A stretch of DNA of 64,000 bases from an uncultured Clostridium sp. (GTDB taxonomy: Bacteria; Bacillota; Clostridia; TANB77; CAG-508): positions 16,535-80,534 of the forward strand of contig CAKNKX010000002.1 of NCBI GenBank assembly GCA_930987745.1, written 5' to 3'. Positions 46,465 to 48,006 of this stretch are shown here, piece after piece (positions within the stretch are counted from its first letter, which is position 1; every line of letters begins with the position of its first letter). Under the pieces are notes generated by a model, which saw only the letters and a program-made list of their open reading frames with translations, did not search any database and had not been told where the DNA came from. The position numbers were made by a program, and so were the translations under genes.

Positions 46465-48006
46465 ATGTCAAGATTTTTAAAAAAAGGAAAAAGAAAACAA
46501 GAAAGAGGAATAACTTTAATAGCATTAATAACAACAATAATAGTGTTATTAATTTTAGCAGGAATAACAATAGGGGCAATAACAGGAAGTAATGGGATAA
46601 TAGGGCAGGCACAAAGTGCAAAAGAAGAAACAGAAATATCACAAGAAAAAGAAATAATAGATATATCAACAGTAGAGGCAATGGGAAAAAACAATAGAGG
46701 AAATTTAGAAGAAGAAGAATTTCAAACAGCAGTTAGTAATCACACAAATGGAAAAGCAGAAGTAACTGACACAGGAGAGGAATTTGAAGTCTTTTTTGAA
46801 GAAAGTAATAGATATTATACAGTGGATAAAGATGGAAATATATTAGATTATACAGATATAGTAATAGATAACTCACCAGGAGATTTAACTAAAAACGAAA
46901 ATGGAGATACAATTGAAGAAGGAAAGCCACTGGAGATATGGTGTATAGAAGATTTAGTAGAATGGTCAAAAAATTATAGCAAATATCTAAATAAAGAAAT
47001 TGCTTTATGTAGAAATTTGAATTTTAAATCAAAATATTCGTATTCAGATAGTGAAAATACAAATTACGGAGACGTTAATAATGACGGAAAAACAGAAAGT
47101 TTAATAAACGAGATGCAAACAGGAGAGGGATTTAATCCTATATATGAATTTAGAGGGGAATTTTATGGTGAAAATAATTTAATTGATAATTTCTATGTTA
47201 ATAAGTCAGGAAATGCAGGTCTATTCATATATGTAACTGGAAACATACATGATATTACAATAAAAGGAAATATTACGTCTCAAACAAGTTATGCAGGAGT
47301 ATTTGCAGATAGTGGCTATAATACAATAGAAAATGTAAATAATTATGCAACAATTAATGGAAATTCGGCAGGAATGATAGCATTCTGTCGAGGAAAAATG
47401 GAAGTTATTAATTGTAATAATTTTGGAGATATAGAAGGAAAATCAGCAGTAGGAGGAATATGTGGAGACTGTTTTTTAGGGCAAATTACAAACTGTAAAA
47501 ACGAAGGGACAATAAAATCTAGTCATTCTGCTAATTATGGAGTAGGAGGAATATGTGGGAATATAGCCAGTAATACTGAAGCCTCTTTTAATAATTGTAT
47601 TAATACAGGAGAAATTATATATGATGGTACTAAGGGCAATTGGTATTTTGGAGGAACAGGTGGATTAATAGGATTAATTAGAGGTTCGGTAACAGCTAAA
47701 AATTGTGTGAATTTAGGAAAAGTAACTTCAACTTCATATCAAGGAGCTATTTGTGGAATGGAATTACATTATTTTGATACAAATGAAAAGTATGAAGTAA
47801 TAAATTCTTTTATGTTAGATAATGTGGAATTAACAACAGGAAGTATATCAACAGATGAGTCAGCAACAAAATTCCAAATTAGTGAGATTCCTGATGTGAT
47901 AGAAAAATTAAACAGCTATATTGCAGAAAATAATTTAGATAAACAGGGTTGGAAAACATGGGAACAAGGAGAAAATGGATATCCAGAACTTAAAGAAGTA
48001 GAATAG
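46465..48006 (+). CDS. secreted/surface protein with a prepilin-like N-terminal hydrophobic segment and GLUG-motif repeats
   Basis: KQERG|ITLIALITTIIVLLILAGI resembles a class III (type IV pilin) signal but has Ala rather than Glu at +5. The C-terminal half has repeated GGI/LxG...NC.N.G.I blocks (GLUG-like). Confidence 0.55.
   Translation: MSRFLKKGKRKQERGITLIALITTIIVLLILAGITIGAITGSNGIIGQAQSAKEETEISQEKEIIDISTVEAMGKNNRGNLEEEEFQTAVSNHTNGKAEVTDTGEEFEVFFEESNRYYTVDKDGNILDYTDIVIDNSPGDLTKNENGDTIEEGKPLEIWCIEDLVEWSKNYSKYLNKEIALCRNLNFKSKYSYSDSENTNYGDVNNDGKTESLINEMQTGEGFNPIYEFRGEFYGENNLIDNFYVNKSGNAGLFIYVTGNIHDITIKGNITSQTSYAGVFADSGYNTIENVNNYATINGNSAGMIAFCRGKMEVINCNNFGDIEGKSAVGGICGDCFLGQITNCKNEGTIKSSHSANYGVGGICGNIASNTEASFNNCINTGEIIYDGTKGNWYFGGTGGLIGLIRGSVTAKNCVNLGKVTSTSYQGAICGMELHYFDTNEKYEVINSFMLDNVELTTGSISTDESATKFQISEIPDVIEKLNSYIAENNLDKQGWKTWEQGENGYPELKEVE

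Follow-up and report, generated by a model that had tools for sequence, protein, structure and literature searches.

What kind of protein does a 513-codon gene of an uncultured gut Clostridium encode, and what decides whether it is transcribed? The question is raised by an open reading frame (ORF) at 46465-48006 (+ strand) in a stretch of 64,000 nucleotides from contig CAKNKX010000002.1, the whole of which is called the window in the following. A preliminary description had outlined this ORF, which our analysis confirmed, and had read its product as a pilin-like N-terminus joined to GLUG repeats, possibly under microsatellite control. After our analysis, the gene probably belongs to a phase-variable family of pilin-like GLUG surface proteins, each equipped with an (AC)n leader attenuator. 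The members of this family share their architecture and folds, are constant in the 5' and variable in the 3' part, and follow a terminator and a leader ORF whose reading frames depend on a repeat that is polymorphic between samples. By analogy with the pil1 switch of Streptococcus gallolyticus, ribosome-mediated antitermination would connect these parts, and the products are presumably exposed on the surface and engaged in binding.

Leader cassette and repeat-dependent frames

Upstream of the gene, we identified a cassette that precedes each of its paralogues as well and was found in 24 distinct leaders. It is composed of a promoter, a ribosome binding site (RBS), a leader ORF with an (AC)n repeat, an intrinsic terminator, and the RBS of the gene itself. 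In the window, its parts are located as follows:

46128-46157, + strand: promoter, based on conservation, with the -35 box TTGACA (46128-46133), an 18-nt spacer, and the extended -10 box TGgTATAAC (46149-46157)
46217-46304, + strand: leader RBS AAGGAG (46217-46222) and leader ORF from ATG at 46230 to TAA at 46302-46304
46265-46286, + strand: (AC)11 microsatellite in the leader ORF, read as His-Thr codons, the putative switch element
46287-46422, + strand: alternative long leader frame, running past the terminator without a stop up to TAA at 46420-46422, used with n divisible by 3 and predicted to be ON
46363-46413, + strand: intrinsic terminator, based on folding and conservation, with a 20-bp hairpin (46363-46409) and a U tract
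46451-46457, + strand: strong RBS AAGGAGG of the main gene, as read in the sequence

The pattern scanner missed the promoter, since the -10 box TATAAC ends in C, and did not call the terminator either; for both, thermodynamic folding and conservation were used in its place. Folding of the terminator resulted in a free energy (dG) of -22 kcal/mol (z -6.2), and none of 200 shuffled sequences folded as well. The promoter hexamers are kept in most of the 24 distinct paralogue leaders, with a variable spacer, and the fourth copy of a tandem array of paralogues (see below) has a different upstream region. The -35 box and the shared sequence TTGACAAAATAA make up the last codons and the stop (46128-46139) of the upstream yfcE-like phosphoesterase gene (45597-46139), so that the boundary of the cassette lies inside the end of that gene. 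An Rfam scan revealed no match in the leader region and, elsewhere in the window, only signal recognition particle (SRP) RNA and tRNA. A candidate antiterminator hairpin around the repeat (AAGCCTT/AAGGCTT) folded no better than shuffled sequences (z +0.71) and was rejected.

As assembled, the leader ORF encodes the 24-aa peptide MKNKVAVSLVGVHTHTHTHFMFTK*, i.e., the short frame that is predicted to be OFF, and its (AC)11 tract is the only run of (AC)>=5 in the window. The long frame falls within an ORF at 46255-46422. Nearly all paralogue leaders revealed the same frame logic: past the end of the repeat, two frames stop at +11 to +42 nt, and the third stays open up to +97 to +262, with the hairpin spanning +78 to about +126 from the same point. 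The end of the long frame falls within the hairpin, shortly past it, or on the start of the gene, and this frame is entered only with n divisible by 3. Over 40 leaders, n ranged from 7 to 15, with the long frame present in six of them. All six multi-member groups with identical flanks of 185 nt carried more than one repeat number, and the locus of the window itself had n = 11 in four assemblies and n = 10 in two. Different paralogues were in the long frame in different samples. Because n is 11 and the leader stop lies about 60 nt before the hairpin, the copy in the window is predicted to be OFF.

Based on this organization, we propose that each gene copy would be transcribed from its own promoter through a phase-variable attenuator, with slipped-strand mispairing in the (AC)n tract toggling the leader frame. 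In two frames, the ribosome would stop 11-42 nt past the tract, the hairpin would form, and transcription would end (OFF). In the third frame, i.e., with n divisible by 3, the ribosome would read into or through the hairpin and block it, and transcription would enter the gene (ON). The product would be inserted with its N-terminus inside and a beta-helix outside, where it could bind a ligand, and the paralogues together would provide antigenic or ligand variation.

This attenuator is a variant of the switch of S. gallolyticus pil1, in which GCAGA repeats in a leader peptide gene determine if the ribosome gets as far as a premature terminator and destabilises it, as was proven experimentally (Danne et al. 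2014, PMC3894217); here it comes with a new repeat, in a new phylogenetic group, and multiplied over a gene family. In pil1/pil3 as well as here, a promoter, a leader ORF with a simple repeat, and an intrinsic terminator lie before a gene for a surface structure (PMC3894217). As in pil1, out-of-frame changes of the repeat would shift the leader stop into or past the hairpin, where the ribosome blocks termination, and most copies or cells are OFF there and are predicted to be OFF here. The repeat is a GCAGA pentanucleotide in pil1, whereas it is the dinucleotide (AC)n coding for His-Thr here, and exactly one of the three frames is predicted to be ON here, unlike in pil1. The hosts differ too, being a Streptococcus for pil1 and an uncultured Clostridia bacterium in our case. 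While pil1 is one sortase-pilus operon, the device predicted here stands before each of at least seven paralogous single genes. Our search of the literature revealed no described switch built from leader peptide, repeat, and terminator besides that of S. gallolyticus. The comparative data, together with this precedent (PMC3894217), strongly support the microsatellite control suspected in the preliminary description.

It might be argued that the polymorphism of the (AC)n microsatellite is neutral, the small ORF spurious, and the gene expressed constitutively by read-through or from another promoter. AT-rich intergenic DNA indeed yields many promoter-like matches, e.g., at 46418-46447 downstream of the terminator. 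However, the whole cassette is conserved in the 24 distinct leaders and recurs in diverged form in another metagenome-assembled genome (MAG), the tract varies while the 185-nt flanks are identical, and the architecture matches that of an experimentally proven switch, which makes neutrality unlikely. The diverged leader, MKVNANLETLVAV(HT)n, was found in another uncultured Clostridia MAG (L008, 487-808) and contains (AC)14 and a terminator of -26 kcal/mol. It precedes a gene for a giant GLUG-type protein (2,360 + 757 aa; 808-10135) with an ordinary transmembrane (TM) anchor, and its long frame ends exactly on, or overlaps, the ATG of that gene.

Some properties of the data count against a phase-variable attenuator. 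The repeat counts are consensus values of metagenome assemblies and compare samples, not single cells, the ON and OFF states are deduced from DNA alone, and some contigs are possibly chimeric at the conserved 0.7-kb cassette. Furthermore, family members in the more distant MAGs L006 and L010 have no (AC)n leader, and the switch is therefore lineage-specific.

In two samples (L013 ~7823-8001 and L014 ~7817-8001), the leader of the fourth paralogue of the array (566 aa) lacks the 3' half of the hairpin, which is intact in two other samples. Judged from its sequence, the hairpin-deleted allele may represent a natural 'locked ON' state.

In contingency loci, e.g., those with CT repeats in the outer-membrane protein genes of Helicobacter pylori, the repeat lies in the 5' coding region. 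As in the family described here, slippage of a dinucleotide leads to stochastic ON/OFF switching of single members of a surface-protein family. In H. pylori, slippage puts the structural gene itself in or out of frame, whereas the genes described here keep an intact coding sequence, and transcription termination would depend on the frame of the separate leader ORF. The combination of leader, repeat, and terminator is now seen in an uncultured gut clade that is not related to S. gallolyticus, with another repeat and before every family member, which would make it a general, portable design for contingency loci. Moreover, the predicted ON, OFF, and terminator-deleted alleles visible in metagenomes provide a natural test set for the override of terminators by ribosomes.

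Paralogue family and GLUG beta-helix

The species harbors at least seven paralogues of the gene, among them a tandem array of four (527, 523, 582, and 566 aa) and a further pair; an additional copy in tandem is present on one contig. Over the leader and the first ~130 codons, the paralogues share 85-95% DNA identity (about 78-95%, mostly 88-95%, over 46493-46852), whereas identity over the region of the beta-helix is only 30-55%. The following features were assigned to the gene in the window:

46465-48006, + strand: coding sequence of the pilin-like/GLUG protein, 513 aa
46465-46509, + strand: basic leader peptide (aa 1-15), with Gly15 as putative prepilin-peptidase site, based on the near-invariant Gly at -1
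46510-46869, + strand: constant pilin-like N-module (aa 16-135), based on AlphaFold2 models, DNA identity of the paralogues, and weak pilin matches
46942-48003, + strand: variable GLUG-type right-handed beta-helix and caps (aa ~160-513), based on profile and Foldseek matches
47212-47763, + strand: repeated turns of the beta-helix (aa 250-433)
48015-48043, + strand: terminator-like hairpin 3' of the gene, read directly from the sequence without separate folding

Contigs with family genes are entirely different from each other in the region before the conserved 0.7-kb cassette (L002 1-10000; L016 versus L017 1-8000). In this region, L002 carries an integrase/Mob_Pre element, two tRNA genes, and an extra paralogue, and L016 and L017 have different housekeeping flanks. 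These differences result either from chimeric assembly or from paralogues recombining at the cassette.

In the C-terminal half of the protein, we detected three strict and four degenerate GG[ILV]xG motifs (aa 251-431), which alternate with four strict and one degenerate NCxNxG motifs at a spacing of about 26-36 residues. The seven strict motifs were reached by none of 20,000 shuffled sequences. The 'at least five repeats' counted in the preliminary description hold if degenerate turns are included, but not with strict motifs only. Applied to the protein of the window alone, the Glug hidden Markov model (HMM; PF07581) gave no significant match (13.4 bits, E 0.11, Pfam cut-off 20.5), whereas at the family level it matched 27 of 54 homologues with a best E of 1e-11. 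A search of the family profile against the PDB resulted in matches to 3n6z (BACOVA_03286, 'putative IgA1 protease'; E 5.8e-14) and 7uvl_P (a chain of the Streptococcus pneumoniae IgA1 protease; E 1.3e-13). The AlphaFold2 model of the 513-aa protein, which was built on the alignment of the 54 homologues (pLDDT 92, pTM 0.85), revealed a right-handed beta-helix at aa ~226-470 followed by a helical and strand cap, and the protein carries the C-terminal motif W..W..GENGYP. With this model, Foldseek found 3n6z (9e-9), 6xja_P (8e-5), and 7uvl_P (3e-4), each with a probability of 1.00. Profile and structure searches thus bear out the GLUG assignment made earlier, and the predicted structure of the repeats agrees with it.

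Since the closest solved structures carry the annotation IgA1 protease and two of the 54 homologues weakly match Peptidase_M26_N, the protein might be an IgA1 protease or another M26-type enzyme. However, only the non-catalytic NTD2 beta-helix of the IgA1 protease aligns with it, i.e., the gating domain that contacts IgA1 in M26 IgA1 proteases (PMC9637739), and at 513 aa it is far shorter than the proteases with >1,900 aa, whose middle and C-terminal protease domains it lacks. A motif search of the 513-aa protein revealed no HExxH, no LPxTG, and no further domains. Without an HExxH motif, the likeness to IgA proteases drawn earlier does not extend to a catalytic domain, and an M26-type enzyme is highly improbable. 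Because HExxH, LPxTG, and further domains are missing, the protein is, as judged from model and motifs, a free-standing GLUG beta-helix by fold and not a protease. It shares the GGIxG … NCxNxG motif, the right-handed beta-helix, and the W..W..G.NGYP cap with BACOVA_03286 (3n6z) and the M26 NTD2 domains (6xja, 7uvl, 7uvk; PMC9637739). In contrast to the M26 proteases, it has no NTD1, middle, catalytic, or G5 domain and no LPXTG, and carries a pilin-like N-module instead. The beta-helix most likely serves as a ligand-binding (adhesin-type) module, and the genes of this family can be annotated as coding for phase-variable pilin-like GLUG surface proteins, not for IgA proteases.

A conserved DxNxDG loop lies before the beta-helix (DVNNDGKTE, aa 205-213, window 47077-47103; family consensus YGDINxD). 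Weak matches to dockerin and EF-hand models were obtained for it, and by its sequence it may be a calcium-binding site.

Pilin-like N-module and display route

The protein begins with MSRFLKKGKRKQERG, a basic leader of 15 residues ending in Gly15, and continues with ITLIALITTIIVLLILAGITIGAIT, so that 25 hydrophobic residues follow the leader with Ala at +5, as the preliminary description had stated. Gly15 is conserved in at least 90% of the relatives. In 124 diverse representatives, residue -1 was G in 108, A in 8, and S in 3 (G/A/S in 119), and none of them had Glu at +5. A census of position +5 in 267 relatives resulted in A (226), V (16), T (12), S (10), and E (1). In the AlphaFold2 models, the N-module consists of a hydrophobic helix (14/16-40), a GSNG break, two further helices (45-75 and 83-94), and a four-stranded sheet (98-131). 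Protein P0001, a homologue with 99% identity, lacks SNGIIG, six residues at the point where the hydrophobic helix breaks off before the next helix.

Is this N-terminus a class III (prepilin) signal, as had been proposed? For the protein of the window alone, the N_methyl model (PF07963) fell short of its cut-off (12.9 bits, E 0.087, versus 21.2), and an NCBIfam scan of the full protein, including TIGR02532, revealed no match. At the family level, N_methyl matched 41 of 46 N-module homologues at E<=1 (best E 6.5e-5), all below the threshold. N_methyl scores were 12.9-15.4 bits for a cut-off of 21.2, and one distant relative reaches 21.2 bits. Weak matches to GspG and other pilin models were obtained for 37 of the 46. 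When a profile of the N-module (residues 1-137 and 45 relatives) was compared with the PDB, type IV pilins were the best sequence matches, namely S. sanguinis PilE1 (8pfb, E 0.0016), geopilin (0.06), MshA (0.16), PilA, and PilA5, which make up five of the eight matches listed. They align in register, with kGITLiAL facing kGFTLIEL of the pilins. The N-module is, at the level of sequence comparison, pilin-like and in register with class III signal peptides, so that this part of the earlier proposal stands. Since Glu5 is missing, the HMM thresholds are not reached, and the fold search described below found no pilin, the protein lies outside the curated pilin families.

The preliminary description had called the combination unusual, but more than 2,400 full-length homologues of the 513-aa protein were found, nearly all of them metagenomic, and the N-module profile matched 32,576 cluster representatives (clustering at 50% identity), of which 20,922 reached E<=1e-10. 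Elsewhere, the N-module is joined to BspA-type LRR, DUF285, and Big_2 modules (proteins P0442, P0462, P0489, and P0524), and it is thus a portable front end to which extracellular binding modules are attached. Neither a literature search with the N-terminal peptide string nor a tblastn search of the N-module against plasmid and phage collections resulted in a match. The Glu5-less N-module is abundant yet undescribed, without a curated family, and thus a very abundant unannotated segment that bears varied adhesin-type heads.

Several findings speak against reading the N-module as a pilin. Foldseek with the model of the isolated N-domain (pLDDT 82) revealed no pilin, the best E being 0.27, the assignment lies below every curated threshold, and Glu5 is absent. 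No pilus, Com, or type II secretion system (T2SS) gene was detected in the 64-kb window or in nine other genomic contexts, so that the search for pilB, pilC, pilD, or com genes proposed earlier came out negative: pilB, pilC, pilM, and pilD are missing from the nine contexts, and pilB, pilC, and pilD from the window. A regular expression for canonical Glu5 pilins (G[F..]TLIE) found none in ~494 kb of window and related loci, and no pilus machinery was detected near short 'pilin-only' relatives.

Contigs of related low-GC Clostridia MAGs carry a Peptidase_A24 gene as an orphan in which no DiS_P_DiS domain was detected, within a conserved block of HAD phosphatase-A24-PepQ-EF-P (L022/L023 9485-12529; L010). 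A functional link of this peptidase to the family member beside it in L010 was rejected as incidental, as the conserved block also occurs without a family gene. The family member in L010 (10001-13170) is split into 130 and 423 aa, i.e., it is a pseudogene or an error.

How, then, would the protein be displayed? It might be a true modular minor pilin, cleaved by an A24 peptidase after Gly15 and acting as Glu5-less capping subunit, with the GLUG beta-helix as a tip adhesin. In this case, the filament would push the beta-helix through the wall, and the paralogues would be interchangeable, individually phase-variable tips. This would fit the class III-like signal in register, G/A/S at -1 across a very large family, the topology of the AlphaFold2 models with a long N-terminal helix and a four-stranded sheet, and the presence of an A24 peptidase in related low-GC Clostridia. 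Loss of Glu5 marks tip subunits such as GspK and S. sanguinis PilA, and monoderms are known to have modular pilins onto which adhesive modules are grafted (PMC9934059, PMC8179133). A 513-aa protein held by the membrane only would barely cross a Gram-positive wall, whereas phase variation suggests surface exposure. However, the nine genomic contexts lack pilB, pilC, pilM, and a Glu5 major pilin, neither Foldseek nor the HMM scores identify a pilin, and the long helix is interrupted by the GSNG break. In addition, the modular pilins of S. sanguinis retain Glu5, its Glu5-less subunit being the small one (PMC9934059), and the GLUG-type protein that follows a switch of the same type in L008 is held by an ordinary TM anchor. 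A modular minor pilin is possible on this evidence, if somewhat short of an even chance.

Two known systems allow a closer comparison. S. sanguinis PilB and PilC also combine a pilin-type N-module with a grafted extracellular binding module in a monoderm (PMC8179133, PMC9934059), and in its Glu5-less PilA the absence of Glu5 is tied to the tip position (PMC9934059). In contrast to the protein of the window, PilB and PilC keep Glu5, pass class III detectors, and belong to a pil operon; here, Glu5 is missing in the large modular protein itself, and the genes are scattered among housekeeping genes with no pilus machinery seen. Minor (pseudo)pilins of the GspK/PilX type likewise combine a class III-like N-terminus without Glu5 with a bulky extra domain, and Glu5-less pilins of this type are capping subunits of type IV filaments (PMC9934059). 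Beyond the N-terminal helix, however, no likeness in sequence or fold to them was detectable, and no minor-pilin operon is present here.

The protein could also be an uncleaved signal-anchor (type II membrane) protein that stays in the membrane; its likeness to pilins would be a relic, and the beta-helix would be located in the wall zone or at the surface. The tract of 25 hydrophobic residues after a strongly basic N-terminus, weak Pfam matches to the membrane-anchor families Sigma_reg_N and DUF6556, the lack of pilus genes nearby and of a pilin in Foldseek, and the loss of Glu5 throughout the family all agree with such an anchor. It would, however, need no G/A/S at -1 and no T+2/L+3, which are kept over thousands of diverged clusters, and the consistent best weak matches are pilins and pseudopilins, not generic TM segments. 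We regard this possibility as a tenable one that falls below an even chance.

Taken by its steps, cleavage of the protein by an A24 prepilin peptidase is slightly favoured, because G/A/S at -1 is kept across the huge family. That the protein enters a type IV filament as its Glu5-less capping subunit, as argued from the loss of Glu5 that such a subunit would show, is conceivable but not quite an even bet. Otherwise, the N-module would serve as membrane anchor and stalk, a plain anchor being about as likely; a role at the pilus tip is possible. In a wider sense, the Glu5-less KGITLIAL… module might constitute an undescribed, very widespread surface-display route in gut Clostridia, be it for interchangeable A24-processed capping subunits with GLUG, BspA-LRR, DUF285, or Big_2 heads or for a pilus-independent bindosome-like assembly, each head being (AC)n-switched individually in this lineage, a view that we consider rather doubtful. 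If true, it would imply combinatorial variation at the tip. Whether the N-module is A24-cleaved and loaded onto filaments bears on the way in which many uncultured gut Firmicutes present adhesins.

Genomic setting of the locus

With a GC content of 26.5%, and sporulation genes (SpoIIR, YpeB, Germane) next to housekeeping genes, the window comes from an uncultured spore-forming Clostridia bacterium of the gut with 26% GC. Shortly after the gene, a Zip-family metal transporter gene is broken (48111-54842). The part for the N-terminus (48111-48615) contains a frameshift of its own, and an insertion of ~5.9 kb separates it from the part for the C-terminus at ~54552-54842. This insertion harbors two unknown ORFs (555 and 161 aa), a large serine recombinase in two pieces (Resolvase 51495-52127 and Zn_ribbon_recom 52391-53062), and an AAA_14/DUF4143 ATPase (53208-54464). 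A lone gene for a TraG/VirD4-type coupling protein (T4SS-DNA_transf, TraG-D_C) lies at 39667-41064, with three small unknown ORFs upstream, and may be the remnant of a conjugative element.

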